Origin: an uncultured Bacteroidales bacterium | GTDB taxonomy: Bacteria > Bacteroidota > Bacteroidia > Bacteroidales > UBA7960 | Length of the DNA stretch: 64,000 nt | Assembly: GCA_964453995.1 (NCBI GenBank) | Contig: CAYVQC010000009.1 | Span: forward strand, 16,408-80,407 | Direction of reading: 5' to 3' | Shown: piece by piece, positions 2,121 to 62,788 of the stretch | Numbering within the stretch: the stretch's first letter is position 1 | How the letters are laid out: every line of letters begins with the position of its first letter | Position numbers and translations under genes: made by a program | The notes under the pieces: model-generated | Told to the model about the DNA's origin: nothing | Database searches by the model: none | The model's input: the letters and a program-made list of their open reading frames with translations, nothing else

Positions 2121-2225
2121 CAATACCTGCCCTCCCTCTTGTTTAAAAGATAATCCAAAGCATAAACAAAACTGTTTAGGTTCTGTTAAAACAACTAAAC
2201 ATATCAAAATTTTAACATTCTATTT

Positions 2226-3824: not shown

Positions 3825-3870
3825 TGGAATGGTATGCTGCCTGGTTGCATAATTTAAAAAGCACAGTATT

Positions 3871-4653
3871 ATGAACCGATACAAAAACATACAGGTTGAG
3901 CTGGAAGAGAATGTTTTTACACTTACCCTCAACAGGCCCCAAAAGAGAAACGCAATCGATGAGGCCACCATGGACGAATTGCTGGATGCCCTGAAAGCAT
4001 TTGGCATCAGGAAGGATATATCGCTTGCTGTTCTCAGGGGGGCCGGCACCGATTTTTGTGCAGGAGCTGATCTGGATTGGATGCGGTCAACCCAGGGAAT
4101 GACTATAGAACAACTGGCCAGCCAGAATATGAAACTCCAGAAGGTATTTAACCTTTGGTTTGATTTGCCGGCCTTTACCATTGCTGTAATCCAGGGAAAT
4201 ATTGTGGGAGGAGGGCTTGGCCTGGTGGCCTCTTCCGATCTTGTTGTTGCTCAACCTGGTAGTATGTTCAGGTTCTCTGAAGTTACACTGGGCTTGATGC
4301 CGGCCACCATTGCCCCCTTTGTATTGCAAAGAACACAAAGCCGCTTCATTCGCAATGCCATGCTCACGGCACTTCCCTTCGCTGCCGATGAGGCCCTGCA
4401 ACATGGGCTTATTGATATTGTTGCCGACAAAACTCTTGAAAAGGATGTGCTGGAGCGATACACAAAAGCGCTGAACAAAACAGCCAGAGAGGCTGTTTCA
4501 AAAACCAAAAAACTTTCCAATGACCTGATTTTTAATCGGATCAAAGAACCAATGGATGAGTATACTGCAAATCTGCTGGCCGAGGTACGAAAATCGGAAG
4601 GGGCAGAAAAACGTATTGCAGCATTTTTTAAATCATTAGAAAAGAAAGCATGA
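3871..4653 (+). CDS. Enoyl-CoA hydratase/isomerase family protein (methylglutaconyl-CoA hydratase candidate)
   Basis: 260 aa crotonase fold (NRPQKRNAID, GAGTDFCAGADL). It lies between the carboxylase beta and alpha subunits, and its stop overlaps the next start (ATGA). Confidence 0.75.
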   Translation: MNRYKNIQVELEENVFTLTLNRPQKRNAIDEATMDELLDALKAFGIRKDISLAVLRGAGTDFCAGADLDWMRSTQGMTIEQLASQNMKLQKVFNLWFDLPAFTIAVIQGNIVGGGLGLVASSDLVVAQPGSMFRFSEVTLGLMPATIAPFVLQRTQSRFIRNAMLTALPFAADEALQHGLIDIVADKTLEKDVLERYTKALNKTAREAVSKTKKLSNDLIFNRIKEPMDEYTANLLAEVRKSEGAEKRIAAFFKSLEKKA

Positions 4654-6593
4654 GGATTAAAAAAGTACTTATAGCCAATCGGGGAGAAATAGCACTGAGA
4701 ATAATGCGCTCCCTGAAAAGGATGGAGATTCGGAGCATTGCCCTTTTTACTGATATTGAAAGGGACGATCTTCATGTAAAATCAGCAGATGAGTCTTGGT
4801 CATTGGGCAATGGCAACCTCACTGAAACCTGGTTGAATATCCCCCTCATTCTCAGTATTGCCAAAGAAAGCGGAGCAGATGCCATCCATCCGGGCTATGG
4901 GTTTCTGTCAGAAAATGCCGCTTTTGCCAGGGCATGTGAGCAAGAGGGAATCATCTTTATCGGACCACGCAGCGATGTAATAGAAAAGATGGGCAGTAAG
5001 ATTCTGTCTTCTGCCATCGCCAGGCAGGCCGGTATCCCTCTACTGCCACGTCTGGAAGGTGAGCCCGCTTTATTGATCGAAAAAGCGCATCAACTGGGAT
5101 TTCCTCTCCTGGTAAAAGCCGCTGCAGGTGGTGGTGGCAAAGGAATGGTGCGCATCGACAGCCAGGGGATGCTTGAGCAGGGCGTGTTTGCCGCTTCCGA
5201 ACAGGCACTGCGTTATTTTGCCAATGAAAAAGTCTACCTTGAAAAATACGTGCAACATCCCAGGCATATTGAAGTGCAGATCCTGGCCGACAATCATGGC
5301 AATGTGGTTCATCTGCTGGAAAGAGAATGTACCCTGCAAAGGAACCACCAGAAAGTGGTAGAAGAAGCTCCTTCTGTTTCGCTTAACCCCCAAAACCGGA
5401 CCGCTTTGCATGATGCCGCAGTTAAGCTTGCTAAAACTGTCGGGTATACCAATGCCGGTACAGTAGAGTTTATCCTTGATGAGGACGGCAAATTCTATTT
5501 TCTCGAAATGAACACCCGTATTCAGGTCGAGCACCCCGTTACCGAGGCCATTACCGGCGTTGATATTGTAGAAGAACAGCTACACATAGCCATGAATAAG
5601 AAACTGTCTGTAAGGCAGGAAGATGTGAAAGCCCATGGCCATGCCATTGAAGTGAGGCTGTATGCCGAAGACCCCCTTCACAATTTCAGGCCCTCAGCAG
5701 GTACTGTAAAGAAGTTTATATTACCGACCTCCAAAGACTTACGTGTTGACAGTTCTATTGCCTCATCGGGAAAAGTTAATTCAAACTTTGATGCCATGAT
5801 CGCCAAGATCGTTGTATCATCCACCTCCCGGGATGAAGCAATCATGTCGATGCAGAAAGTTCTCGATAATACCCTTGTGCATGGAATAAAAACCAACCTG
5901 GCACTTTTGGCAGGGATTGTAAAAGCAGAGATTTACAAAAACAATACAATCAGTACCCATAGTATAGCTGACAACCTTTCCCGTTGGGCTACCCCGGAAA
6001 GTACCTTCGAAGATATGATCCTGGCAGCAGGATTATTTCTGTGGCTGGAACGCTACAGTTCCGGCCAGGGCAACAATGCATGGCGTATGGCCAATATAGA
6101 AAAGTTGCTGGTAAATCAGAATGAAATATCTGTGTTTCATTTTCCCCTGGGAGATCATGGCGTGCATTTACGTAAAGGTGATCAATCGTGGGATTTTTCC
6201 AGGATATCTGTAGACGAACATAAAATATCGTTTCTTTGCAACAAAAAGGCTTTTTCTTTTGTTTTCAGTTATTCAGAACGAAATTCAATGTTTCTGGTCA
6301 ACGGAGTTCATTACCAGGTTGTACTTCCCCAAGCAGTGGTAACACGAAGGCTTTCCACCGGTACCAATGGCAACAAACTGCCCGATCTTAAAGCGACACT
6401 TTTTGGCAGGGTTTTACGCGTAAATGTTGCCGCAAAACAGAAGGTAAAATCCGGCGATCCTTTATTGGTTGTAGAATCCATGAAAATGGAAAATACTATC
6501 CTTGCCCCTGAAGATAATGTAGTTTCATCCATCAATGTAAAGGTTGGTGACCAGGTAAGCGATGGACAGGTATTGATAAGTTTTGAAGATTAA
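4650..6593 (+). CDS. Acyl-CoA carboxylase alpha subunit (biotin carboxylase fused to a C-terminal biotinyl domain)
   Basis: 647 aa. It has an ATP-grasp biotin carboxylase N-terminus (KVLIANRGEIALRI, GGGGKGM, EMNTRIQVEHPVTE) and a C-terminal biotin attachment motif VESMKMEN. Confidence 0.85.
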   Translation: MRIKKVLIANRGEIALRIMRSLKRMEIRSIALFTDIERDDLHVKSADESWSLGNGNLTETWLNIPLILSIAKESGADAIHPGYGFLSENAAFARACEQEGIIFIGPRSDVIEKMGSKILSSAIARQAGIPLLPRLEGEPALLIEKAHQLGFPLLVKAAAGGGGKGMVRIDSQGMLEQGVFAASEQALRYFANEKVYLEKYVQHPRHIEVQILADNHGNVVHLLERECTLQRNHQKVVEEAPSVSLNPQNRTALHDAAVKLAKTVGYTNAGTVEFILDEDGKFYFLEMNTRIQVEHPVTEAITGVDIVEEQLHIAMNKKLSVRQEDVKAHGHAIEVRLYAEDPLHNFRPSAGTVKKFILPTSKDLRVDSSIASSGKVNSNFDAMIAKIVVSSTSRDEAIMSMQKVLDNTLVHGIKTNLALLAGIVKAEIYKNNTISTHSIADNLSRWATPESTFEDMILAAGLFLWLERYSSGQGNNAWRMANIEKLLVNQNEISVFHFPLGDHGVHLRKGDQSWDFSRISVDEHKISFLCNKKAFSFVFSYSERNSMFLVNGVHYQVVLPQAVVTRRLSTGTNGNKLPDLKATLFGRVLRVNVAAKQKVKSGDPLLVVESMKMENTILAPEDNVVSSINVKVGDQVSDGQVLISFED

Positions 6594-6625
6594 GATATAA
6601 CAATAGTTTCAATTAAAAGCAAAGT

Positions 6626-7777
6626 ATGAATCAAAGTCCCTATTTCTCACAATTGCATGAGGAATTCCGTTTAAAAGTCAGGCACTTCGCAGAAGAACGT
6701 GTTCGTCCGGTAGCAGCAGAACTCGATCAAAAGGAAGAGTTTTCAGTGGAGCTAACCCAAGCTATGGGGCAACTTGGCCTTTTTGGGGTTAATGTTCCTG
6801 TAGAATATGGTGGTCATGGAAAAGATTACAGATCGCTGGTGCTTGCAGTGGAAGAGATTGCACGGGTAGATGGCAGCCAGGCTGCTACACTGGCAGCTCA
6901 TAATTCGCTCGGCATAGGGCCAATTTATATGTTTGGTACTGAGGAGCAGAAAAAAAGGCTAATCCCCCGACTCACTTCAGGCAAACATACCTGGGCATTT
7001 GCGCTTACAGAACCTAATGCGGGTAGCGATGCTATGGGTACCGAAACCCGTGCAAAGCAGGTTGACGGGCAGTGGGTAATCAACGGGCAGAAAATTTTTA
7101 TTTCCAATGCTGCATCACCTATGTCATTGGGGGCTACAATACAGGCCATTACAGGAGAAGAAGATGGTAAGAAAAAACTTTCCACCATACTGGTTGAAAG
7201 CAATACAGAGGGTTATCACCGCGAGCGCATCACCAATAAAATGATGTGGCGATCGGCTGATACAGGCAAACTCAGGTTCGACAATGTGCGTGTACCCGCC
7301 GATAATCTGCTTGGGGAATTGGGCAAAGGCGGAAGGCAAATGCTTGAAACGCTTGACAGCGGGCGGCTTACCATTGGGGCCATGGGATTGGGCCTTGCCC
7401 GTGGAGCTTTTGAGATGGCACAGAAATATGCCAATGAAAGAAAACAGTTTGGAAAACCCATTAAGCATTTTCAGGCTGTGGCCTTTAAACTTGCCGATAT
7501 GGCACTGAAAATAGAACTTGCCGCCAATACCTTGTACAATGCAGTTTGGCGCAAAGACAATGGATTGCCCTTTGGTAAAGAGGCTGCCATGGCGAAACTT
7601 TACACCTCTGAAATTGCCCGCGAGGTAGCTGATGAAGCCGTACAGATTCATGGCGCCTATGGCCTGGTAAGGGATTATGATATAGAAAGATTCTATCGCG
7701 ACCAACGTATCCTGCAAATAGGAGAAGGAACCAGCGAAATTTTAAGGCTCGTAATTTCAAGACACATCGATAGCTGA
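6626..7777 (+). CDS. Acyl-CoA dehydrogenase (short/branched-chain type; isovaleryl-CoA dehydrogenase candidate by context only)
   Basis: 383 aa ACAD family (TEPNAGSD, C-terminal IGEGTSEILRLVISR). The substrate is inferred from neighbouring genes. See the finding on its hybrid active-site motif. Confidence 0.8.
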   Translation: MNQSPYFSQLHEEFRLKVRHFAEERVRPVAAELDQKEEFSVELTQAMGQLGLFGVNVPVEYGGHGKDYRSLVLAVEEIARVDGSQAATLAAHNSLGIGPIYMFGTEEQKKRLIPRLTSGKHTWAFALTEPNAGSDAMGTETRAKQVDGQWVINGQKIFISNAASPMSLGATIQAITGEEDGKKKLSTILVESNTEGYHRERITNKMMWRSADTGKLRFDNVRVPADNLLGELGKGGRQMLETLDSGRLTIGAMGLGLARGAFEMAQKYANERKQFGKPIKHFQAVAFKLADMALKIELAANTLYNAVWRKDNGLPFGKEAAMAKLYTSEIAREVADEAVQIHGAYGLVRDYDIERFYRDQRILQIGEGTSEILRLVISRHIDS

Positions 7778-7790
7778 AACACTAACCATT

Positions 7791-8798
7791 ATGGAAGATC
7801 GCAAAAAAGACCACATCAATCTTGCGCTAACCAACCGTACAGGTACTGTTGAGAAGGATTACCGGTTTGTATATGAACCACTTCTTTCGGGTCATACCAC
7901 TCCTGAGATTTCCAGAGTAAAGCTGGCAAACAAATTTATGAAAGTTCCCATCTGGATTTCCAGTATGACCGGTGGGGCAGGAATAGCAAGGCATATCAAT
8001 ACCAACCTGGCCATGGCTGCCAATGAATTTGGCCTTGGCATGGGATTGGGCTCATGCCGTATATTGCTTGACTCGGAAAAACACCTGCCTGACTTCGACA
8101 TGCGTTCGGTTATTGGTGATGAGCAACCCTTTTGGGCCAACCTGGGGATTGCCCAACTGGAGCAAATGGTAGAAAAAGGAAACCTCAACGAGGTTACTGA
8201 TATGATCAATCTTTTACGTTGCGACGGTTTGATTATCCATGTAAATCCCCTCCAGGAATGGTTTCAACCCGAAGGCGACAGGCTCAGGCATCTTCCTCTT
8301 GAAATCATAAAGGAAGTAGTTAGCTTTCTTGATTTTCCTGTTATTGTCAAAGAAGTAGGGCAGGGCATGGGGCGTGAAAGCCTTAAAGCCATGATGGAGC
8401 TCCCCCTGGCAGCAATTGAATTCGCTGCTTTCGGGGGTACCAATTTTGCCAGGGTGGAAATGATGCGAAGACCCACAATAGAGCACGAGCTTTTCGAGCC
8501 TTTGGTATTTGTTGGGCAAACTGCAGAAGATATGCTCATAGATGTTAAGCAATTGCTCGCAGATGGAGTGAATAACCAGGCTCAACTGTTAATCATCAGT
8601 GGCGGTATAAGAAATTACCTCGATGGCTATTATTTTATCAAATCCAGCCCCTTGCCTGCTGTCTACGGTATGGCATCAGGCTTTTTAAAACATGCCAGGG
8701 ATGATTATTCATCGTTGAGAAGCTGGGCTAAATCGCACATTGACGGGTTGCTTATGGCACATGCTTTCCTGAGGCTCAACAACACAAATCAAGGCTGA
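7791..8798 (+). CDS. fni: Type 2 isopentenyl-diphosphate delta-isomerase (FMN-dependent IDI-2)
   Basis: 335 aa. It starts MEDRKKDHINL, and has the SSMTGG motif, a VKEVGQG TIM-barrel core and SGGIRN. It sits in a mevalonate pathway context. Confidence 0.8.
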   Translation: MEDRKKDHINLALTNRTGTVEKDYRFVYEPLLSGHTTPEISRVKLANKFMKVPIWISSMTGGAGIARHINTNLAMAANEFGLGMGLGSCRILLDSEKHLPDFDMRSVIGDEQPFWANLGIAQLEQMVEKGNLNEVTDMINLLRCDGLIIHVNPLQEWFQPEGDRLRHLPLEIIKEVVSFLDFPVIVKEVGQGMGRESLKAMMELPLAAIEFAAFGGTNFARVEMMRRPTIEHELFEPLVFVGQTAEDMLIDVKQLLADGVNNQAQLLIISGGIRNYLDGYYFIKSSPLPAVYGMASGFLKHARDDYSSLRSWAKSHIDGLLMAHAFLRLNNTNQG

Positions 8799-22191: not shown

Positions 22192-22275
22192 CCCGGGTGT
22201 TTCCAGCGTGAAGCGCCTCGCAATGCATATTCCCCTGAAGTCATTCTGAAATTTGCAAAAAAACAACGGAAAGAC

Positions 22276-22306
22276 TTTTGGGAATCCAAAACTATTTTCT
22301 ATCTTT
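22276..22306 (+). promoter_or_regulatory. Bacteroidota-type promoter upstream of rpmH
   Basis: TTTG (22276-22279), a 19-nt spacer, then TATCTTTG (22299-22306). This matches the TTTG/TAnnTTTG consensus exactly. The rpmH ATG lies 120 nt downstream. Confidence 0.5.
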
Positions 22307-22426
22307 GCAATCCCAAAATCCGGGCTGCCAGGGCAGATAAGTTTATCAAAGAAAATCAGGCTGTTAAATTCATTTTGCAGCAAAGGCTATAACGCTGAAA
22401 GTACTCACAGCAAAATATATTAAGCA

Positions 22427-22582
22427 ATGAAAAGGACATTTCAACCATCGAGAAGACGCAGAAAAAACAAGCATGGTTTCAGAAAAAGAATGGAATCTGC
22501 CAACGGACGCAAAGTTTTGGCAGCCAGGAGAGCAAAAGGCAGAAAGAAACTTACTGTGTCTGACGAAAAGACTCATAAGTAA
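22427..22582 (+). CDS. rpmH: 50S ribosomal protein L34
   Basis: My own translation gives [51 protein letters not shown] (51 aa), the classic L34 sequence. It is absent from the ORF track because it is under 60 aa. Confidence 0.9.
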
Positions 22583-22612
22583 AGATTTGGTTAATCATTA
22601 ATTTTGGTTATT

Positions 22613-22647
22613 AGGTTGTGTCAGTAAAAATTGATGCAACCTTTTTG
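22613..22647 (+). terminator. Probable rho-independent terminator after rpmH
   Basis: AGGTTG...CAACCT stem, extended by TCA/TGA across a 2x2 internal loop, followed by TTTTT. Confidence 0.5.
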
Positions 22648-22756
22648 GTTTATACCTGCCTGTGATTTATGCCTACATCGTTCTCCAGTATTTTATACCC
22701 GCGAATTTTAAGCAGGATTAACGATAAGACCAACTCCCGGGGCCCCATGCAGGTGA

Positions 22757-22786
22757 TTTGATAGTGAATGATTTTTCTTACTTTTG
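22757..22786 (+). promoter_or_regulatory. Bacteroidota-type promoter with a long leader upstream of the DUF4834-like/YfhO-like/GT4 genes
   Basis: TTTG (22757-22760), an 18-nt spacer, then TACTTTTG (22779-22786). The next annotated ATG is about 180 nt downstream at 22971. Confidence 0.45.
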
Positions 22787-22970
22787 CCTAGTATTATGCA
22801 ACCAATGTAATTTCGGTAGTTTTACGATCAGTTCACGGGAAATATAAAGTGAAATGAAAGAAACCGAAAACGTAACAAAAATTTTAAAACCACTAACAGC
22901 CCTGATAGTAAAAACCATGCACAACCTCACCGGTTTCTTTTAAAGTATCATCTGTTAAATTTCTTTCCTT

Positions 22971-48889: not shown

Positions 48890-49906
48890 ATGGATAAAAA
48901 AGGATTTACAATGTTAAACACTCGTTTTTTATTTGTTGTAAAAAGTTTGTCTGTCTGGGCATTCTTGATTGTGCAATCATCCTTAGATCATGCATCTGCT
49001 CAGCAGGGGATGACACTCTCTGAATACATCGAAGCCTATAAAGAAATTGCCATGGAAGAAATGGTTACACATGGCATACCTGCCAGTATTAAGTTGGGGC
49101 AGGGAATTCTTGAATCGGGATTTGGCAACAGCGATCTTGCCGTAATTGCCAACAATCATTTTGGTATAAAATGTCATGGCTGGCAGGGTCGTACCTTTTA
49201 TAAGGATGATGACAAAGTAGATGAGTGCTTTCGGGCCTATGATGATCCCCGCCAGTCGTTTCGCGACCATTCTGAGTTTCTTACCGGACGGCCCAGGTAT
49301 GCTGCTTTGTTTGCACTTGAGATCACAGATTACCGTGGTTGGGCCCATGGATTGAGAAAGGCCGGCTATGCCACAAATCCCCGGTATGCCAAATTACTCA
49401 TTGGGGTAATTGAGCGGCACAAACTTTATGAGTTTGATAAATTGGTAATCGCCTCTGCAGAAATAAACCCCGACACCCCCCAGCTCCAGGGCAAAAGCCA
49501 CAAGGAAATTGTATCTTCCCAACCAACAGGAAATGAAGATTTTCCCACGGTGGGCGTTGGTCGTGACATACTGGAAAACAATCGCATCCGCTATGTGTAT
49601 GCCCGTCAGGGTGATACACCGGAATCATTGGCCCGTGAGCTTGGCTTGTGGGCCTGGGAGATTTACAGGTATAATGAAATGGGCCGCAGTGATCAGCTGG
49701 CCATAGGAGATATTGTATATTTACAGCCTAAAAGAAGAAATGCCAGGCAAAGCTGGCATGTGGTGCAAGAGGGTGAAACCATGTATGATATTTCGCAAAA
49801 ATATGGAGTGAAGTTAAAATTACTATACCGGCGCAATAAAATGGAGCCCGGTACCGAACCTGACCCTGGGCGGAAAATTCAACTCAGGGCATGGCCCTCA
49901 AGGTGA
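48890..49906 (+). CDS. Peptidoglycan hydrolase: GH73 N-acetylglucosaminidase domain plus two LysM domains
   Basis: It has a signal peptide and a glucosaminidase core (GIPASIKLGQGILESGFGNSDLA..NNHFGIK). The two LysM repeats are YVYARQGDTPESLAREL and HVVQEGETMYDISQKYG. Confidence 0.8.
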   Translation: MDKKGFTMLNTRFLFVVKSLSVWAFLIVQSSLDHASAQQGMTLSEYIEAYKEIAMEEMVTHGIPASIKLGQGILESGFGNSDLAVIANNHFGIKCHGWQGRTFYKDDDKVDECFRAYDDPRQSFRDHSEFLTGRPRYAALFALEITDYRGWAHGLRKAGYATNPRYAKLLIGVIERHKLYEFDKLVIASAEINPDTPQLQGKSHKEIVSSQPTGNEDFPTVGVGRDILENNRIRYVYARQGDTPESLARELGLWAWEIYRYNEMGRSDQLAIGDIVYLQPKRRNARQSWHVVQEGETMYDISQKYGVKLKLLYRRNKMEPGTEPDPGRKIQLRAWPSR

Positions 49907-49915
49907 ATTATTGCA

Positions 49916-50440
49916 TCAGGGTTCACCACAGTGTATCCTGACGTGATCTTCAGCTTCTGCATAACCCAACTCCAGTGCTTTTCTCAAATCCCTGCAACCC
50001 GATCTTTCCTGCCTGTTCTTTATTTTTGCCTGCCCCCGGTTGAAATAAGCCTCGGCATAATCGGGCTTTAACAGAATGGCCCTGTTGTAATCAGCAATCT
50101 CACTACTGGCACGGTAGCGGAGTTTATACTTGGTATAGGCACGCCAGAAAAAAACTTCTGCATCATTGGGATAGATCTTAATTGCACGGTCAAAATCAGT
50201 TTTGGCATCCTTGTAATCGCCCGACTGAAATTTGGCATACCCCCGGCCAAAGTACGCCTGGTACAGCATCTCATAGTCAGGTTGAAGACGAATAATACTG
50301 GAAAAATCTTCAATGGCGCCTTTGTAATCTCCCAATTCCATTTTTGCCCTGGCCATCCGGGCAAAATCTTTCACCGTTTGCCCGCAGACATCCTGAAAGG
50401 TTATTGCCGCAAAAAGCATGGTAAAAATAAGGTACTTCAT
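49916..50440 (-). CDS. Secreted TPR-repeat protein
   Basis: 174 aa with a signal peptide (MKYLIFTMLFAAITFQDVCGQ) and 3-4 TPR units (..AYFGRGYAKFQSGDYKDAKTDFDRAIKIYPN..). Confidence 0.7.
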   Translation of the reverse strand: MKYLIFTMLFAAITFQDVCGQTVKDFARMARAKMELGDYKGAIEDFSSIIRLQPDYEMLYQAYFGRGYAKFQSGDYKDAKTDFDRAIKIYPNDAEVFFWRAYTKYKLRYRASSEIADYNRAILLKPDYAEAYFNRGQAKIKNRQERSGCRDLRKALELGYAEAEDHVRIHCGEP

Positions 50441-50871
50441 AGTCTTAGGTTTTTATGTGTTAGCGTATCTTGTATACGAAAAATCGTGCCCTTGTAACAC
50501 AAATGTAAATCATTTTACCCAAAGCACTGGAACAAGGGATTCAGAACCAAGTAAAAACAGGTGAAAAACAGGTATAATTACCCATCGTTTACAGTAGAAA
50601 ACTGCGGGTGAAATTAGTTGATCACATCGGCCTGTGCGAATACTTGTGGGTTTGATCTTATTTGCTGCTATGTTGATGATATTTTAATTGTTTCCGGATA
50701 TGCTTGTTAAAGTCTGTATTTTCTTTTAAAAGATGTGAAAGATATAAAGTAAATCAGGTCAGCTTCTTATGTCTGATCCCCCAATAAATTGTTAACTTTT
50801 TTTTAATAATTTTTTTGAGACCATAATGTTTTTTATATCTTTATCACGGGAATTAATGTAATTGTAGCTTT

Positions 50872-52674
50872 ATGAAGAAAATATTACTATTAATAACACT
50901 TTGTGTTTCGACAAATAACTTGCTATTATGCCAAACAGCCGACCATATCAGGGCAAATCCTCATATTTATCTTTGGGGGGAATCAACCGGAACAACTTTC
51001 CAGCGGGCCGATCAACAGGCACTTGCATATCTGATCAACCAGATATCTGTTTCTGTAGAAAGTAACTTTACACTTTTACAGCAAGAGTTTATAGATAATG
51101 ATGGTAACCGGTATGAAGAAACCTACGAAGGAGTGATCAGCACTTATTCCTCTGCCGCATTGCATAATACGATGCGTATTGTTATATCTAATGAGCCCGA
51201 AGCGCATGTAATGCGATATATCAGGAGAGATGAATTGTCCAAAATATTTGAGCAAAGAGAGCGTAAAATACTCGATTTTGTTAGTCAGGGAGATCTGAAC
51301 TGCAAGCGTTATAGAGCTGCAGATGCCCTTCGTTATTATTACTGGGCTCTGATATTGCTCAAGAGTCATCCCAGGTCAGGTGAAATAACTTACCCTGATC
51401 ATGAAGGTGTTGATCGGTTATTATCGACTATGTTGCACCAAAAAATCAATGAAGTTTTCGACAATCTCATGGTCAGTGTTTCCGATATACGTCAGTCAGA
51501 CAACATGATGCTATATATTCTTGAAATTAAATATAAGAACCAGCTTGCTCAAAGCTTTGATTATACCTATTGGACAGGTCGGGACTGGACCAATATTCAT
51601 AGTGCACGCGATGGATTGGGCGTAGTGGAGTTTCCACAGGAAACAGAACTTAAAGAGATTCAATTGAGGGTAGAATACCAGTTTGTAAATGAAACGGCCA
51701 TTGATAATGAACTTCGTGATGTAATAAGTCAACTGGAGGAAGTACCATTTAAAAACGCCAGTTTTATCGTTCCGGTAGACTATATTATTGCAACAGATGA
51801 AGAAGAGGAGGTGCCTGAAGAATCTTTACCGCAACAGGGCAATATTGAAAGCATCACTGATGCTGAATTGTGGAATGAAAGGATGCAGATACTGATTCAG
51901 GCACTTACTTCGCAAAACCATCAGAAAGCCCGGGAGCTTTTTACCGAAGAAGGCTACGAAATGTATAAGCAGTTACTGGACTATGGGCGTGTCAGAATCC
52001 TTCAGGAGCCGGAGTTTACCTTTTACAGATTCGATGATATGGTAATATGTCGTGCTTTGCCTCTTAGCTTTCATTTTCAGAACAATAACCGCAGCTTTGT
52101 AGAAGATATTGTTTTCAGGTTCAATGAAGATATGAAAATCTCTTCTCTTGCATTTGGATTAGGAGCAAAAGCGGTGGAAGATATCTGGGCAAATAATGCA
52201 TGGAATGAATACGCCCGAATGGTGTTGGTGAACTTTCTTGAGAACTATAAGACTGCCTATGCCTTGAAACGCATTGACTATATTGAAAGTATTTTTCATG
52301 ACGATGCTTTGATTATTACCGGTACTGTATTGGAGAGTGGCGGCTTACCTGATGTTCGGTATACAAGCAATGACCTGGTGCGATATAACCGGTTTAAAAA
52401 AGCCGACTTTATTAGGCATCTTAAACACTCCTTTGCCAGTAATGAATTCATAAATATAAGATTTGAAGACAACTATGTGAGAAAAGCCGGCTGGGGTAAA
52501 GAAGTTTACGGAATCAATATCAAGCAGGATTACTTTTCATCCAACTACGGAGATACAGGATATCTGTTTTTAATTGTAGATGTTGATGATCCGGATCGAC
52601 CAATGATCCAGGTCCGAACCTGGCAGCCCGGCCTGGTAGATATTGAAGAAATGATAGATCTGTCCAATTTTTAG
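50872..52674 (+). CDS. Secreted protein of unknown function (N-terminal region loosely LPP20-lipoprotein-like)
   Basis: 600 aa with the signal peptide MKKILLLITLCVSTNNLLLCQ and a central acidic linker (ATDEEEEVPEES). I recognise no catalytic motif. It is AT-richer than its neighbours and separated from the next gene by 36 nt (18 nt using the tracked start at 52693). Confidence 0.6.
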   Translation: MKKILLLITLCVSTNNLLLCQTADHIRANPHIYLWGESTGTTFQRADQQALAYLINQISVSVESNFTLLQQEFIDNDGNRYEETYEGVISTYSSAALHNTMRIVISNEPEAHVMRYIRRDELSKIFEQRERKILDFVSQGDLNCKRYRAADALRYYYWALILLKSHPRSGEITYPDHEGVDRLLSTMLHQKINEVFDNLMVSVSDIRQSDNMMLYILEIKYKNQLAQSFDYTYWTGRDWTNIHSARDGLGVVEFPQETELKEIQLRVEYQFVNETAIDNELRDVISQLEEVPFKNASFIVPVDYIIATDEEEEVPEESLPQQGNIESITDAELWNERMQILIQALTSQNHQKARELFTEEGYEMYKQLLDYGRVRILQEPEFTFYRFDDMVICRALPLSFHFQNNNRSFVEDIVFRFNEDMKISSLAFGLGAKAVEDIWANNAWNEYARMVLVNFLENYKTAYALKRIDYIESIFHDDALIITGTVLESGGLPDVRYTSNDLVRYNRFKKADFIRHLKHSFASNEFINIRFEDNYVRKAGWGKEVYGINIKQDYFSSNYGDTGYLFLIVDVDDPDRPMIQVRTWQPGLVDIEEMIDLSNF

Positions 52675-52710
52675 TTTTTACCATAAACCTTCATGATTAA
52701 ATGTTTAAAG

Positions 52711-54834
52711 ATGAAGAAACTGTTTTTTGTACTCATATTAATCTTATCCTGCTTTGCGGCATCAGGACAAAACAATATATCAGTTCTTTCCTTCCAGCCC
52801 CTTCCAAATGATCTCGACGCAAGGTTACATCACCCCAGAAGAGATCAGAACGGCGAATTAAGTGCAATTATTAAGGTGGTTACTACACAAACCGGGTTTG
52901 AATGGGAGCCTGATGGCCTTGGTATCGTAGCTTCAGTACCAAAAACCGGAGAAATCTGGCTTTATGTGCCCCGCGGGGCAAGAAGAATCACCATAAAACA
53001 TCCTCATCTTGGTATTTTAAGAAACTATTATTACGATCATCCTATTGAGGCTGGTTCGGTTTATGAAATGGTACTTTCTACAGCTGAAGTTGAATTGGTT
53101 GTTAAAGAAAGCGAGGTTGTTCTCCAGTGGTTTAGCATCCTTTCAGAGCCCGAAGGAGCAAATGTTTATATTGATGATAAGTTTGAGGGACTTACACCAT
53201 TTTATCGTCGCTTGCCCGAAGGGACGTACAATTATATAGTAGAAATGCCAAGATATTATACACAAGCCGGACAAGTTGAGATAAGGGGTGATAAAAGCGA
53301 CCTTGATATAAAACTCCTTCCTGCTTTTGGAAAGATGCAGATTGCTTCTGTTCCCGAAAACGGAATGCTGATTTATCTTAACGGAAATAATACCGGTCTT
53401 ACTACACCTGATACTCTTATCCTTGATAGTAACAAAGAGCACCAGGTAAAACTTATGAGCCAATGGTTTGAACCCCAGGAGAAAACTGTAACAGTTGGCG
53501 ATGGTGAGAAAAGTTTTGAGCTGTTCGAAATGGTGCCTACAGAATTTGGTCATTTAACAGTTACCACTGAACCAGAGGCTGATGTCTATATTAATAATCA
53601 TTTGGTGGGTACGGGAAAAACCACCACGCGTCTCAATCCAGGTTATTATGAAGTAGCCGCCCGGTTGGACAAGTACTATACCGCCCTAAAAGATATCTTG
53701 ATCAACCCAACAGAAGACCAGGAAATAAAGTTAGATCTAAAACCACGAACAGGTTCTCTGGAGGTAATTTCCAATCCTTTTAATGCCCGGGTCTTGATAG
53801 ATGGCAAGTATGTAACAAACACTCCCGCCACAATTGAAGATCTTTTAATTGGAGAATACAAGGTCTTGTTGAGGTTGGATGGTTTTGCCGACATTACCAA
53901 TACAGTAACAATCAATGAGAATGCTACAACACGAATTAATGAGCGGCTTCCTGCAGGAATGCGCTTCAGTGTTTATTCTGATCCTCCGGGGGCAGATCTT
54001 TACCTGAATGATGAACATCAAGGTCAAACACCGGTGCATATCAATATTCTTTACGGGGATTATAAACTGAGACTTGAACTTGGTGACCGGGATATTCAGC
54101 AGAATATAACCCTTGACAAACGAAGTAAGAACGATTGGAACTTTGAGTTTAAAGATTTTCAGGAACCCGAAATGATCATCGTTCAGGGAGGATCTTTTGT
54201 GATGGGGTGTACACGCGAACACCGAAAAATTTGCTTGAATGATGAGAAACCTACCCAGCAGGTTTTACTGAATAACTTCTTTATCAGCAAATATCCGGTC
54301 ACCCAAGATCTATGGCAATCGGTAATGGGAGAGGATTCTCACCTGGTTAACAATTGTCCCGATTGTCCGGTTACCCAGGTAAGCTGGTACGACACCCAGG
54401 AGTTTATCAAAAGAATCAATCAGATCACCAAAAAGAACTACAGGCTTCCCACAGAAGCCGAATGGGAGTATGCTGCGCGGGGTGGGTTAATGGGAAACTC
54501 AACACTTTATGCCGGTTCTGATAATCTTACTTATGTAGGATGGTTTCTGGAAAACAGTGACGGGATTATTCATCAGGTTGGCGAAAAAAGACCCAATGAA
54601 CTTGATATTTACGATATGAGTGGGAATGCATGGGAGTGGTGCAATGATTGGTATGGCCCTTATACTCCGGAGGGAAAGCAGAATCCAACAGGCCCTTCCA
54701 CCGGTACGATGAAGGTAGCACGTGGTGGTGCTTTTGCCAGCGACAGCCAGAGTTGCCGCACAACATCACGCAATCGGTCAAACCCAGATTCCAGATCAAC
54801 CCTGTTGGGATTCAGACTCGTACTGGATATCTAA
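52711..54834 (+). CDS. Signal peptide + conserved N-domain + about 5 PEGA-like repeats + C-terminal FGE-sulfatase (SUMF1/EgtB/PvdO-type) domain protein
   Basis: The start is placed at MKKLFFVLILILSCFAASGQ. PEGA-like repeats include PEGANVYIDDKFEGLTP, EADVYINNHLVGTG, PFNARVLIDGKYVTNTP and PPGADLYLNDEHQGQTP. The C-terminal domain carries YPVTQDLW, LPTEAEWEYAARGG, GNAWEWCNDWY and GFRLV. Confidence 0.75.
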   Translation: MKKLFFVLILILSCFAASGQNNISVLSFQPLPNDLDARLHHPRRDQNGELSAIIKVVTTQTGFEWEPDGLGIVASVPKTGEIWLYVPRGARRITIKHPHLGILRNYYYDHPIEAGSVYEMVLSTAEVELVVKESEVVLQWFSILSEPEGANVYIDDKFEGLTPFYRRLPEGTYNYIVEMPRYYTQAGQVEIRGDKSDLDIKLLPAFGKMQIASVPENGMLIYLNGNNTGLTTPDTLILDSNKEHQVKLMSQWFEPQEKTVTVGDGEKSFELFEMVPTEFGHLTVTTEPEADVYINNHLVGTGKTTTRLNPGYYEVAARLDKYYTALKDILINPTEDQEIKLDLKPRTGSLEVISNPFNARVLIDGKYVTNTPATIEDLLIGEYKVLLRLDGFADITNTVTINENATTRINERLPAGMRFSVYSDPPGADLYLNDEHQGQTPVHINILYGDYKLRLELGDRDIQQNITLDKRSKNDWNFEFKDFQEPEMIIVQGGSFVMGCTREHRKICLNDEKPTQQVLLNNFFISKYPVTQDLWQSVMGEDSHLVNNCPDCPVTQVSWYDTQEFIKRINQITKKNYRLPTEAEWEYAARGGLMGNSTLYAGSDNLTYVGWFLENSDGIIHQVGEKRPNELDIYDMSGNAWEWCNDWYGPYTPEGKQNPTGPSTGTMKVARGGAFASDSQSCRTTSRNRSNPDSRSTLLGFRLVLDI

Positions 54835-57948: not shown

Positions 57949-60753
57949 ATGCCCGAAAAAAAGAAACTTTTTCTGCTGGATGCCATGGCCCTTATTTACC
58001 GGGCCTATTTTGCTCTTAACCGCAACCCCAGAATCAACTCCAAAGGAATGAATACATCAGCCGTGTTGGGATTTGCCAATTCACTGCTGGAAGTTTTAAA
58101 GAAAGAGAACCCCACACACATAGCAGTTGCTTTTGATGCGTTTGCCCCAACCCAGCGGCAAACCGATTTTACAGCTTATAAAGCAAACCGCGAAGATACC
58201 CCCGAGGACATTGTCAGTTCCATTCCTTACATCAAACGGCTGATCGAAGGCTTTAATATACCGGTGCTTGAGGTGCCTGGTTATGAGGCAGACGATATTA
58301 TTGGCACCTTGGCCAAAAGAGCAGAAAAGGATGGATTTACAGTTTTCATGATGACTCCTGACAAGGATTTTGGTCAGCTCGTTTCGGAGAATATCTTTAT
58401 GTATAAACCCGCACGTATGGGCAACGATGTTGAAATACTGGGCGTTAAAGAGGTATGTGAAAAGTTTGGCGTGAAACGACCCGAACAGGTCATTGATATA
58501 TTGGGATTGTGGGGAGATACCTCCGACAATATCCCTGGTGTGCCGGGTATAGGAGAAAAAAAAGCAAAAAAGCTCATTTCTGATTTTGATTCCATTGAAA
58601 ATCTGCTTAAACACGTAGATGATGTACCAGAGAAAAGAAGCAGGGAATCTCTTAAAGAATATGCCCAACAGGCTCTTATGTCTAAAAGTCTGGCTACCAT
58701 TATTCTCACTGTGCCTATGGAATGGGATGCTGCCCTTTTTGAGCACAAAGCTCCCGATCCTGAAATATTGTTGCCCCTGTTTGAAGAACTTGAATTCCGC
58801 ACTTTTGGCAAAAGGGTTTTTGAACATATCAAAGAAGAGGCTCCGCACGTTGTGCCTGCTGCAAAACAAATACAAGGACAAATGGACCTGTTTTCGGGAA
58901 CTGACGCCTTTGAAGATCCGGCCGAATATGCCAGTAAAAGAGTTAAAGAACTCTTGGATGAGTACGATTTTCAGGCTGTTGCGGATAAAGAAGATATCAG
59001 CAGGCTCATAAGGGAACTGGCTTCTGAGGGTTCTTTTTGCTTTGACACCGAAACAACTTCCCTTGATATTCGCCAGGCACAGCTTGCCGGGATTGCTTTT
59101 TGCACAAAACCCGGCAAAGCATGGTATGTTCCTTTCCCTGCAGATCAACAAAAAGCCCTGGATCAGGCCGAAATGTTCAAAGAGATCTTTGAAAACCCAA
59201 TGGTGGAAAAAACTGGTCAAAACCTCAAATTCGATATCGGGGTTTTGAAAAACTATAATATACGGGTTGCAGGAAAGCTGTTTGACACGATGCTGGCTCA
59301 TTACCTGCTGCAACCCGATATGAGGCATAACATGGATGTTTTGTCAGAAACCTATCTTTCCTACAAACCCCTGAGCATAGAAGCACTCATAGGGAAAAAA
59401 GGCAAAGGGCAGAAAAGCATGCGCGATGTTCCCCCGGATATCATTACTGCTTATGCCTGTGAAGATGCCAGTGTAACCCTAAGATTGCGCCATGTTTTTG
59501 AGCCAGAACTAAAAAAACATGGTCTTACCCACCTGTTTGAAGAGCTCGAAACACCCCTGATTTATGTTCTTTCTGATATGGAATATCAGGGTGTGAGACT
59601 CGACACCAGGGCCCTGGAAGAGTATTCGCTGAAGCTGCAGGATGAAATAGAGAAAATTGAGGCACAGATATACGAACTTGCCGGGGTAAGATTCAACATT
59701 GGTTCACCCAAGCAACTTGGCGAAATATTGTTTGACAAGCTGAGAATCGTAGAAAAAGCAAAAAAAACCAAGACCAAACAATACAGCACCAGCGAAGATG
59801 TCCTTTCCAAGTTGGTTTTGAAGCATGCTATAGTACAAAAGATCCTTGACTATCGCTCACTCACCAAGCTTAAGTCAACCTATGTGGATGCATTTCCAAA
59901 GCTGATCAATGAAAAAACCGGGCGGCTCCATGCCAGCTTCAATCAGGCCGTAGCAGCCACAGGCAGGTTGTCGTCCAACAATCCCAATCTGCAAAACATT
60001 CCCATTCGCACTGAGCAGGGGCGTGAGATTCGGAAGGCCTTTGTTCCCGGGAGTGAAGAACATGTTTTGCTTGCGGCCGACTACTCACAGATCGAATTGC
60101 GGATCATTGCTTCCCTGAGTAAGGATCCTGCCATGATTGAGGCGTTCAACCAGGGGCTTGATATACACGCAGCAACAGCAGCAAAAGTATTCGGAATCAG
60201 CATAGACCAGGTGGACCGTGATATGCGCCGAAAAGCAAAAACCGTAAACTTTGGTATTGTCTACGGAATCTCTGCTTTCGGGCTTTCCGAAAGGCTCAAT
60301 ATTCCGAGAGACGAAGCTGCAACGATCATCAATAATTACTTCAGTCAATATCCGGGCATAAAGAAGTATATGGATGAAACCATTGAATTTGCAAGAAAAA
60401 ATGGCTATGTAGAAACCATTATGAAGCGCAGGCGCTACATAAACGACATCAACAGCTCCAACGGGGCAGTGAGAGGTTATGCCGAACGCAACGCCATCAA
60501 CTCTCCCATTCAGGGCTCTGCTGCCGACATGATCAAAAATGCCATGATAGCCATTTACCTTGAAATGAAATCCCGGGGGTTAAAATCGGAACTGATCCTG
60601 CAGGTGCATGACGAACTTGTATTCGATGCACGGAAAGATGAGCTTGACACCCTGAAAAAAATTGTGGAACATCACATGAAAAACGCAATGAAACTGGAGG
60701 TAGAACTCGAAATTGATATGAACACCGGGTCCAATTGGCTGGAAGCCCATTAA
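57949..60753 (+). CDS. polA: DNA polymerase I
   Basis: 934 aa with a 5'-3' exonuclease N-terminus (LFLLDAMALIYRAYFA), a 3'-5' exonuclease region (FCFDTETTSLD) and polymerase motifs (ADYSQIELRI, RRKAKTVNFGIVYG, QVHDELVF). Confidence 0.95.
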   Translation: MPEKKKLFLLDAMALIYRAYFALNRNPRINSKGMNTSAVLGFANSLLEVLKKENPTHIAVAFDAFAPTQRQTDFTAYKANREDTPEDIVSSIPYIKRLIEGFNIPVLEVPGYEADDIIGTLAKRAEKDGFTVFMMTPDKDFGQLVSENIFMYKPARMGNDVEILGVKEVCEKFGVKRPEQVIDILGLWGDTSDNIPGVPGIGEKKAKKLISDFDSIENLLKHVDDVPEKRSRESLKEYAQQALMSKSLATIILTVPMEWDAALFEHKAPDPEILLPLFEELEFRTFGKRVFEHIKEEAPHVVPAAKQIQGQMDLFSGTDAFEDPAEYASKRVKELLDEYDFQAVADKEDISRLIRELASEGSFCFDTETTSLDIRQAQLAGIAFCTKPGKAWYVPFPADQQKALDQAEMFKEIFENPMVEKTGQNLKFDIGVLKNYNIRVAGKLFDTMLAHYLLQPDMRHNMDVLSETYLSYKPLSIEALIGKKGKGQKSMRDVPPDIITAYACEDASVTLRLRHVFEPELKKHGLTHLFEELETPLIYVLSDMEYQGVRLDTRALEEYSLKLQDEIEKIEAQIYELAGVRFNIGSPKQLGEILFDKLRIVEKAKKTKTKQYSTSEDVLSKLVLKHAIVQKILDYRSLTKLKSTYVDAFPKLINEKTGRLHASFNQAVAATGRLSSNNPNLQNIPIRTEQGREIRKAFVPGSEEHVLLAADYSQIELRIIASLSKDPAMIEAFNQGLDIHAATAAKVFGISIDQVDRDMRRKAKTVNFGIVYGISAFGLSERLNIPRDEAATIINNYFSQYPGIKKYMDETIEFARKNGYVETIMKRRRYINDINSSNGAVRGYAERNAINSPIQGSAADMIKNAMIAIYLEMKSRGLKSELILQVHDELVFDARKDELDTLKKIVEHHMKNAMKLEVELEIDMNTGSNWLEAH

Positions 60754-62284: not shown

Positions 62285-62756
62285 AATTTCAAAATTTTGC
62301 TAACGCAAATCAGCCTGCAAAAGTACAAAAAAACACAACTTGATAATCTTGCTGATTTTTGTTATCATTTGAAATGCAAATATACGGATAAAAACGCAAA
62401 AAAGTCATACAAACACTGTTAAATACGAACATAAATTCTGTTGAGCTTCCGCAGCACCTTACAACAAAGGGGTTCTGGAAAGGCCAAATTGTTAATAACT
62501 TTTCCGGTTTTTCGTTTGCAAACGATTGTTTTCCCCCAAAAAAGCAACCGTAGCTACACTGAAAATGAATATTTGTGAAAAATTAACGTCGGATATTTGC
62601 TTAACATGCAGATAATCAGGGGTAAACTGCATAGATATCCCCTTTTTGAACTCGTTGTCGGTTAATCCGCAGGCGGGGTATTTGTATGGGTTGCTACCCG
62701 TAAAAAATAGATAAGCTTTCAGGGTTTTTCGCCGCACAGGTAAGGGAAATTCTTGG

Positions 62757-62764
62757 TACTTTTG
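62757..62764 (+). promoter_or_regulatory. Candidate -7 box (TACTTTTG) upstream of holB
   Basis: Matches TAnnTTTG 25 nt upstream of the ATG at 62789. It lies inside the tracked TTG-initiated extension, which argues for 62789 as the real start. Confidence 0.35.
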
Positions 62765-62788
62765 GGTTCTTTATCAAAAAGCCCAAAA

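Follow-up and report, generated by a model that had tools for sequence, protein, structure and literature searches.

Here, we analysed two adjacent genes in a 64,000-nucleotide stretch of DNA from an uncultured Bacteroidales bacterium (contig CAYVQC010000009.1, positions 16,408 to 80,407), which is termed the window below. Gene 1 and gene 2 encode exported proteins of 600 and 713 amino acids, and the reading that we favour, with about as much confidence as reservation, is that the pair constitutes an extracytoplasmic ligand-recognition module of the Bacteroidia envelope, in which gene 1 acts as partner or scaffold of a stalked lectin encoded by gene 2. The evidence comes from the export signals and domain anatomy of both proteins, the loss of a catalytic cysteine in the head of gene 2, the linkage of the two gene families, the swapping of heads among gene-2 relatives, the targeting of an orthologue by a diversity-generating retroelement (DGR) and the pattern of variability across the family. 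Loci from other genomes are designated by L numbers and individual orthologous proteins by P numbers. The pair is laid out as follows, with both genes taken from the open reading frame (ORF) list.

50872-52674, plus strand: gene 1, 600 aa, exported
50872-50931, plus strand: signal peptide of gene 1 (residues 1-20; Lys-rich n-region, hydrophobic h-region)
50932-51225, plus strand: LPP20-like alpha/beta domain of gene 1 (residues 21-118, with a low-confidence insert at 63-99)
51226-51777, plus strand: long helices (residues 119-165) and beta-sandwich (residues 166-302) of gene 1, from the secondary structure of the model
51778-51855, plus strand: acidic disordered linker of gene 1 (residues 303-328), containing DEEEEVPEES
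51856-52671, plus strand: tandem NTF2-like domains of gene 1 (residues 329-430 and 431-600)
52693-54834, plus strand: gene 2, 713 aa, exported; likely true start 52711
52771-53085, plus strand: N-terminal domain (N-domain) of gene 2 (residues 27-131), a beta-sandwich of about 105 aa, pLDDT about 88-92
53122-54120, plus strand: PEGA stalk of gene 2, five beta-sandwich repeats (residues 144-476; PF08308, 184.1 bits)
54163-54822, plus strand: head of gene 2 with the FGE-sulfatase fold, C-type-lectin subclass (residues 491-710)
54709-54819, plus strand: segment of gene 2 equivalent to a DGR variable repeat (residues 673-709): MKVARGGAFASDSQSCRTTSRNRSNPDSRSTLLGFRL

Domain anatomy of the two proteins

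The structural model of gene 2 (mean pLDDT 88.1) comprises the N-domain (residues 29-130 in the model), a disordered linker, five PEGA sandwiches and the fold of a formylglycine-generating enzyme (FGE). A preliminary description of this DNA had proposed much of this, and its ORFs, spacer and domain layout match the ORF list, Pfam and the models. This holds for the export of both proteins (signal peptides are present in both families), for a conserved gene-2 N-domain (residues 27-131, conserved across orthologues) and for about five PEGA repeats followed by an FGE-sulfatase domain (Pfam, 184 bits over five stretches and 165 bits, respectively). The suggestion of a lipobox (‘ILSC’) in gene 2, on the other hand, fell: the signal peptides of the family end in ...A|Q, a lipobox-like motif occurs in just 2 of 41 gene-2 orthologues, and the lipoprotein reading was ruled out as the cysteine is not conserved. 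The A|Q ending is, we assume, in agreement with the ‘Q-rule’ for Bacteroidetes signal-peptidase-I substrates.

The N-domain has no match in Pfam or among PDB sequences. By exhaustive search, its family comprises 1,538 representative clusters, in which the domain nearly always stands straight after the signal peptide; a word-index search with the N-domain gave 7 short proteins only. A divergent PEGA repeat was considered and rejected, since hhalign gave at most 1.2% compared to 97.4% for a PEGA1-versus-PEGA4 control. The N-domain is the defining and best-conserved module of the gene-2 family; its conserved residues include D40, R44, D51, N53, K61, E87, W89, H103 and R110. The five beta-sandwiches of the stalk are also seen in the strand pattern of the model at residues 144-476, and both the stalk and the segment at residues 673-709 are less conserved than the N-domain and the FGE core. 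Beyond PEGA and FGE-sulfatase, gene 2 matched only two Pfam beta-sandwich families overlapping the PEGA repeats, and a search of BFVD returned generic matches only, namely strings of beta-sandwich repeats.

PEGA is present in 65 of the 70 N-domain proteins scanned, while their C-terminal heads differ: FGE in 7, Fib_succ_major in 3, Lcl_C and Sel1 in 2 each and WD40 in 1. Heads are exchanged between C-lectin-type families (FGE, Fib_succ_major and Lcl_C), and with just 7 of 70 carriers the FGE domain does not define the family.

The head of gene 2 itself has the FGE fold, scoring 164.6 bits against Pfam PF03781 (cut-off 23.3). The top Foldseek match is TvpA (2y3c), followed by FGE structures, with human and bacterial FGE at a probability of 1.0; phmmer likewise places TvpA first (E = 4e-29), with PorK at about 5e-11. 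The catalytic pair of FGE has the form ...C-x4-C..., which corresponds to C336 and C341 in the human enzyme. When the head is aligned with Streptomyces coelicolor FGE, GGSYLCHDSYC stands opposite GGAFASDSQSC, so that the first copper-binding cysteine is replaced by serine and the second is kept; the single cysteine is likewise kept in gene-2 orthologues. No gene for a sulfatase substrate was found in the window flanks (in which a 182-aa ORF and one long ORF were unscanned) or among the recurrent neighbours of the family. Matches in NCBIfam are partial and restricted to the FGE part (EgtB 87.6 bits against a cut-off of 360, PvdO 76.7 against 500 and GldK 76.2 against 350). Given the serine at the first cysteine position and TvpA as best match by both sequence and structure, the head is predicted to be a non-catalytic, binding-type module, in line with the ligand-binding role that the preliminary description had named as frequent for such domains. 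According to a survey of DGRs, TvpA does not generate formylglycine and probably acts by ligand binding (PMC5758913). The same work names FGE-type, DUF1566 and Fib_succ_major domains as C-lectin carriers of DGR variable regions (PMC5758913).

Gene 1 matched no family in Pfam, NCBIfam or PADLOC and no catalytic family in Pfam or NCBIfam, consistent with an earlier remark that it shows no recognisable catalytic motif. Its own family is large, with 2,377 scored homologous clusters, essentially all from Bacteroidota, and homologues in at least 557 species-representative genomes; among the matches listed, carriers are Odoribacter laneus (locus L022), Bacteroides cellulosilyticus (DSM 14838, locus L061), B. 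salyersiae and Prevotella metagenome-assembled genomes (MAGs), to name some. The signal peptides of gene-1 orthologues end in ...AQ and just 1 of 47 shows a lipobox-like motif; the family is not lipidated. An AlphaFold model built on an alignment of 47 sequences (mean pLDDT 76.8) divides the mature protein into two halves joined, as in the preliminary description, by the acidic linker at residues 303-328, the least conserved segment (entropy 3.2 bits) and disordered in the model (pLDDT below 50 at residues 305-323). In the same model, the alpha/beta domain of the N-terminal half spans residues 33-118, and two modules made of helices and a curved sheet lie at 332-428 and 432-590.

The domain that follows the signal peptide scores 14.6 bits against Pfam LPP20 (cut-off 25.9). 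We nevertheless regard it as LPP20-like, because the orthologues P0079 (38.1 bits) and P0060 (28.7 bits) exceed the cut-off at the same position and the gene-1 family profile matches the PDB entry 4kzs, an ‘LPP20 lipofamily protein’ (E = 5.5e-4). It is the best-conserved N-terminal segment of gene 1. The C-terminal modules were assigned by Foldseek against the PDB to the NTF2-like fold with a probability of 1.0 and target-normalised TM-scores of 0.6-0.79. Matches included NTF2 itself, beta subunits of ring-hydroxylating dioxygenases, the C-terminal domain of the orange carotenoid protein, Bd1075 and SnoaL-like proteins, all of them at fold level only (8-15% identity), and a Pfam match to the NTF2-like family Cds6_C is sub-threshold. 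Conservation along gene 1 peaks in the LPP20-like segments and in the second NTF2-like domain, where the invariant polar residues include E457, R467, K510, S523, E525 and N528; Q552, Y554, S556, Y559, D561 and R582 are invariant as well.

Linkage of the families and diversification of the heads

The two genes form a recurrent unit. Of 80 loci centred on gene-1 homologues, 72 were informative and 8 uninformative, and 58 of the 72 have an N-domain gene no more than 10 kb away from gene 1; in 36 of these it follows immediately downstream on the same strand and in 22 it is found elsewhere within this distance. Conservation of the pair as a unit, on which the preliminary description depended, is thereby borne out. 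By our rough estimate, chance placement of the few N-domain genes of a genome of several Mb would bring one within 10 kb only a few percent of the time. A second sample comprised 79 metagenome loci centred on N-domain genes. In 41 of them the sequence reaches 2 kb or more upstream, and in 20 of these 41 the first N-domain gene is directly preceded by gene 1; gene 1 is also adjacent in one of four further N-domain loci. A single gene 1 can be followed by several N-domain paralogues: in L151, an array of five stands directly after it. Tandem arrays of five paralogues were also seen in L133, L143 and L146, and several of the paralogues are FGE-headed.

DGRs were detected by a self-similarity scan for adenine-biased repeat pairs. 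In L017, the orthologue of gene 2 is the target of an intact DGR, whose cassette sits between the gene-2 and gene-1 orthologues:

2131-4251: gene-2 orthologue (N-domain-PEGA-FGE), the target
4117-4248: variable repeat, at the 3' end of the FGE domain
4361-4849: accessory gene of the HRDC type, not the Avd type
4806-5825: reverse transcriptase (RT) gene, RVT_1
5810-5941: template repeat; of 22 mismatches, 19 have A in the template
6281-8071: gene-1 orthologue

A second complete set, in L078, consists of a variable repeat (575-767), bAvd (826-1170), a template repeat (1306-1498) and an RT gene (1545-2777), and all 24 of its 24 mismatches are A. Its target is a Fib_succ_major protein whose ORF is incomplete at the contig start; a Fic gene and then a gene-1/N-domain pair lie downstream. 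What looks like a decayed DGR was found in L012 (14315-16576), in which RT fragments and a 47-nt remnant of variable and template repeat lie downstream of an N-domain-PEGA-FGE orthologue. A partial RT gene was also noted at the edge of L052 (2-412), about 9.6 kb upstream of gene 1. DGR association is nonetheless rare, as none of the 79 metagenome N-domain loci contains an RT gene. The survey of Roux et al. (bioRxiv 10.1101/2020.04.01.020958) lists PEGA (PF08308) with the domains that it reports as new on DGR targets, each with more than five predicted targets.

Residues 673-709 of the window's gene 2 align without gaps with the peptide encoded by the L017 template repeat, which allows a comparison of positions across the family. 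Among 37 FGE-type orthologues, positions whose template codon carries A at its first or second base have a mean entropy of 2.99 bits, compared to 0.80 bits for the rest (Mann-Whitney p = 3.8e-7), so that the hypervariable positions of the family fall on adenine-bearing codons of the template. For the window copy itself, the scan for adenine-biased repeats revealed no cognate template repeat within the 64 kb, and tblastn searches of the window with RT, Avd and HRDC sequences from L017 and L078 gave chance-level matches only (E of at least 0.49). Compared to P0126, a single diverged relative of 88% identity, the segment shows no excess of variation (5 of 34 positions versus about 12% overall). 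With neither RT, Avd, HRDC nor template repeat and no excess change against P0126, the window's gene 2 looks like a fixed, non-diversifying member of a family in which the binding surface is a diversification hotspot.

How might these proteins work together? In the reading that we favour, gene 2 would be exported via signal peptidase I and, once mature, would consist of a docking domain at its N-terminus, followed by five PEGA repeats as a rigid stalk and by a C-type-lectin head of the FGE fold, which would bind a ligand instead of catalysing formylglycine formation. Gene 1, as a non-lipidated LPP20/NTF2 protein, would accommodate the N-domain of a single stalked lectin or of several, and thereby anchor or organise them in the envelope. 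Across the family, it is the head that evolves fast and is exchanged, with FGE, Fib_succ_major and Lcl_C alternating and with hypermutation by DGRs in some relatives. Docking of the N-domain on gene 1 is suggested by the constancy of this domain across different heads, its position at the mature N-terminus and the occurrence of one gene 1 with many N-domain genes; this docking, an oligomerisation of gene 1, the location in the periplasm or at the surface and the ligand are what we infer.

Several points weigh against this proposal. A direct contact between the two proteins is a proposal that draws on indirect observations, and the gene linkage is strong but asymmetric: 14 of the 72 informative gene-1 loci lack a neighbouring N-domain gene although their sequence continues downstream for 3 kb or more, and around roughly half of the N-domain genes no gene 1 is present in the surrounding 10 kb, so that the partnership is not obligate in cis. 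Neither a lipid anchor nor a membrane helix was detected in the pair, and the families matched include no outer-membrane barrel and no C-terminal domain of the type IX secretion system (T9SS), which leaves anchoring and surface exposure unexplained. Fusions to TonB_C, present in some gene-2 relatives, hint at the periplasm, a poor fit with external ligands. In addition, the LPP20 score of gene 1 itself stays under the Pfam threshold, the invariant polar residues of its second NTF2-like domain are compatible with an enzyme or a small-molecule binder, and the window copy has neither a DGR nor excess divergence in the segment at residues 673-709. As to location, the TonB_C fusions and the missing lipid anchor and T9SS signal favour the periplasm, while the use of orthologues as DGR targets favours exposure to changing ligands.

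A bolder version, which we advance only tentatively and hold improbable in its full extent, is that of a new envelope apparatus: a gene-1 base would dock changeable PEGA-stalked lectins via their N-domains, with heads that are replaced when paralogues are swapped and that some lineages also renew through DGR hypermutation. If true, such a receptor array could recognise glycans of phages, competitors or hosts, at the surface or in the periplasm. The docking model, if it holds, would also explain how this gut-dominating phylum fixes its variable binding proteins of this type in the cell envelope; gene-1 carriers include the cultured human-gut genera Bacteroides, Odoribacter and Prevotella.

Locus context and alternative readings

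The pair is flanked by the following genes, to which a 182-aa ORF (unscanned) and a long ORF at 57949-60753 are to be added; the latter we take, without a family scan, to be DNA polymerase I.

48890-49906, plus strand: glucosaminidase-LysM gene, flank of the pair
49916-50440, divergent from gene 1: TPR gene (ORF list and Pfam)
50441-50871, 431 bp: spacer between the TPR gene and gene 1, without any ORF of at least 80 aa
54870-57008, minus strand: ComEC gene, convergent with gene 2

Gene 1 and gene 2 are separated by 18 nt if the latter starts at ATG 52693 and by 36 nt if it starts at the second ATG (52711). The start is ambiguous: the near-identical, NCBI-annotated P0125 begins at the second methionine (MKKLFF, 52711), while the longer N-terminus is retained in the 88%-identical P0126. 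The spacer upstream of gene 1 is presumed to be the promoter region of the pair. An Rfam search of it revealed no RNA element, and a search for the Bacteroidetes-type motif TAnnTTTG placed none for gene 1, the motif being found on the minus strand only, at 50507, where it precedes the start of the TPR gene by 67 nt. Promoter-like sites numbered 11 compared to a shuffle mean of 12.5, with a predictor of the sigma-70 type that does not cover Bacteroidetes promoters. Terminator-like sites, at 7 compared to a shuffle mean of 3.1 (sd 1.8), were about 2 sd above expectation, and none was found between the two genes or at their ends. The two longest ORF-free stretches of the window lie elsewhere, at 22192-22970 (779 bp, GC 0.38) and 62285-62788 (504 bp, GC 0.37).

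The same flanks occur in the Bacteroidales MAG locus L001, where a peptidase gene, a 206-aa methyltransferase-like gene, the glucosaminidase-LysM gene and the TPR gene stand in the same order. The 206-aa gene is presumably rsmG, an assignment made without a family scan. Amino-acid identity between window and L001 amounts to 63-78% for the flanks, 53% for gene 1 and 59% for gene 2.

These surroundings bear on the possibility that the pair is a housekeeping brace in the periplasm, which we consider unlikely but well worth weighing. Stalk and head would then bind peptidoglycan or some other invariant polymer, gene 1 would lie under the outer membrane, and no variable recognition would be involved. 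The conserved position, syntenic with L001 and next to a gene for a peptidoglycan glucosaminidase, would fit such a role, but this neighbour is common to L001 only. PEGA is regarded as peptidoglycan-associating (Kaur et al., PMC7159879), the cell-wall enzyme Bd1075 contains an NTF2-like domain, and the periplasm, to which the TonB_C fusions of relatives also point, would be the default location of proteins with no lipobox and no T9SS domain among their matched families. The non-diversifying state of the window copy agrees with a brace, whereas the DGR targeting of orthologues and the hypervariable positions on the binding surface would be unexpected for the receptor of an invariant polymer. 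Heads swapped among lectin-type families, arrays of up to five paralogues and the faster evolution of the pair relative to its flanks in L001 also speak for the ligand-recognition module instead.

Alternatively, gene 1 could be an enzyme, a chaperone or an export factor that serves N-domain proteins, or their small molecule, through the pocket of its second NTF2-like domain. We rate this as rather doubtful. The high conservation of that domain with its many invariant polar residues would suit the idea, all the more as many NTF2-fold proteins are enzymes or small-molecule binders, but the resemblance is confined to the fold, no sequence family or catalytic motif was recognised and no substrate is indicated. 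The presence of one gene 1 for several N-domain paralogues would also suit such a helper.

A third alternative is a recently inserted, horizontally acquired AT-rich cassette with an accessory or defence function in phage or inter-bacterial conflict. The preliminary description had leaned in this direction with a ‘compositionally distinct insert’. Gene 1 has the lowest GC of the window's 44 long ORFs (0.398, z = -2.7), gene 2 is at 0.426 (z = -1.3), and the GC3 of both genes (z = -2.0 and -1.9, respectively) is the lowest in the window. The AT shift indicated by these z-scores is real, yet codon preference is typical, as the synonymous-codon log-likelihood under the rest of the window gives z = 0.1 for gene 1 and -0.6 for gene 2. 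The spacer (GC 0.32) lies inside the range of 0.31-0.41 of the window's other long spacers, and in other genomes gene-1 homologues do not exceed their neighbours in AT content (mean difference -0.001, n = 64). Taken together with the synteny in L001, typical codons and ordinary family composition identify the pair as an old resident of the locus that evolves faster than its flanks and not as a recent insertion. That the pair is less conserved than its flanks in the comparison with L001 would suit an island, but the flanking genes themselves are the same there, and in the flanks examined no integrase, tRNA or repeat boundary was seen. A recent accessory-type system is further contradicted by database searches: neither protein matched a PADLOC-DB family (E-values up to 0.01 considered), and 2.9 million viral contigs yielded no match to gene 1 and one to the N-domain. 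FGE-type domains are regarded as binding effectors in conflict systems (PMC7159879) and DGRs as well as Fic, ParE and AAA_14/DUF4143 genes stand near the module in some loci, but the recurrent neighbours of gene 1 include no NTPase or nuclease effector. An acquired island is thus very unlikely and largely contradicted by these tests.

The recurrent neighbours comprise family 2 (about 890 aa), family 3 (about 194 aa), family 7 (about 329 aa), the CarboxypepD_reg-like family 6 and Fib_succ_major-headed proteins. All are exported or Pfam-less, lineage-restricted and devoid of NTPase and nuclease domains, and none is found in the window; caspase, CsgG and LpoB partners, which had been suggested for the pair, are not among them. 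In Paludibacter-like genomes, exported proteins of families 2, 3, 7 and 6 (the last of about 257 aa), without any Pfam match above threshold, precede gene 1. This run of four occupies 4645-9946 in L020 and recurs in L013, L015, L016, L021, L024, L049 and L052; together with gene 1, it may represent a larger version of the system. The small neighbours of families 3 and 5 were tried as LPP20 paralogues of the gene-1 N-terminus without support (hhalign at most 6%, Pfam E = 0.23), and family 13, upstream of gene 1 in Bacteroides, was ruled out as a component because it is DusB. Fic/DOC genes (family 28) lie near the module in L038, L059 and L078, genes for AAA_14/DUF4143 ATPases in L045, L055, L059 and L082, and a ParE toxin gene in L083 (7484-7789). 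Their recurrence beside the module in several unrelated loci may mean that it is often located at the edge of variable genome regions. In L082 (8000-10000), tandem repeats of about 2 kb (translation ...VSFTLGVTPSPNQLVTPRVEYNPYRVSFFIRTFFTIPYALRAKY...) stand directly upstream of a solitary N-domain-PEGA-Fib_succ_major gene.

A genuine FGE/EgtB/PvdO-family enzyme, or a ring lipoprotein of the PorK/GldK type in a secretion or gliding machine, is the least credible reading of gene 2 and is likewise largely contradicted, as the strong Pfam FGE-sulfatase match, the partial NCBIfam matches and PorK among the Foldseek matches are outweighed by scores far under the cut-offs, the serine in place of the first catalytic cysteine, the absence of a DinB-type domain match, of a conserved lipobox and of sulfatase or porL/M/N genes in the flanks, and the replacement of the FGE head by other domains in most family members.

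Comparison with known systems

Among characterised proteins, the head of gene 2 is most similar to TvpA of Treponema denticola (2y3c). Both have lost the first catalytic cysteine and both share a C-terminal ...RGG...C R...R...P...GFRL scaffold, whose fixed residues are interspersed with variable positions. The likeness extends to TvpA-type DGR targets, as the gene-2 orthologue in L017 is a bona fide DGR target. In the 64 kb of the window, however, gene 2 is accompanied by neither a template repeat nor an RT or accessory gene. Descriptions of TvpA present it as a surface lipoprotein without a PEGA stalk, whereas gene 2 combines a non-lipoprotein signal with an N-domain and five PEGA repeats and is paired with an LPP20/NTF2 protein.

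The first 100 or so residues of the gene-1 family match the LPP20 family (PF02169), and some orthologues are named ‘LPP20 family lipoprotein’ in database entries. In contrast to that family, a lipobox-like motif is almost absent here (1 of 47), and gene 1, at 600 aa, exceeds the 97-position LPP20 profile by a beta-sandwich and two NTF2-like domains. To our knowledge, such additions do not occur in characterised LPP20 proteins.

With PorK/GldK, gene 2 has in common that a Bacteroidota envelope protein uses the FGE fold non-enzymatically, PorK being among its Foldseek matches; it differs in its score against TIGR03525 (76.2 compared to 350 bits), in the lack of a conserved lipobox and of porL/M/N neighbours, and in an FGE head that is dispensable in its family (7 of 70). 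In EgtB terms, the N-terminal part of gene 2 consists of N-domain and PEGA repeats, and no DinB-type domain was matched.

In the literature searched, we found no work that combines LPP20, NTF2 and PEGA, and no description of gene 1, of the N-domain or of the two as a pair. The L017 protein is a PEGA-bearing DGR target of the kind listed by Roux et al.; the passages concerned list PEGA only, and the N-domain, the PEGA-stalk architecture and the LPP20/NTF2 partner are not described in them. Our results provide chromosomal DGR targets of Bacteroidota with a conserved partner gene, and many annotations as ‘PEGA domain’ or ‘SUMF1/EgtB/PvdO family’ are now tied to a non-enzymatic, lectin-type function. 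C-lectin-type variable binding proteins as such are of a known kind; new here are the proposed anchoring N-domain and the conserved partner gene.

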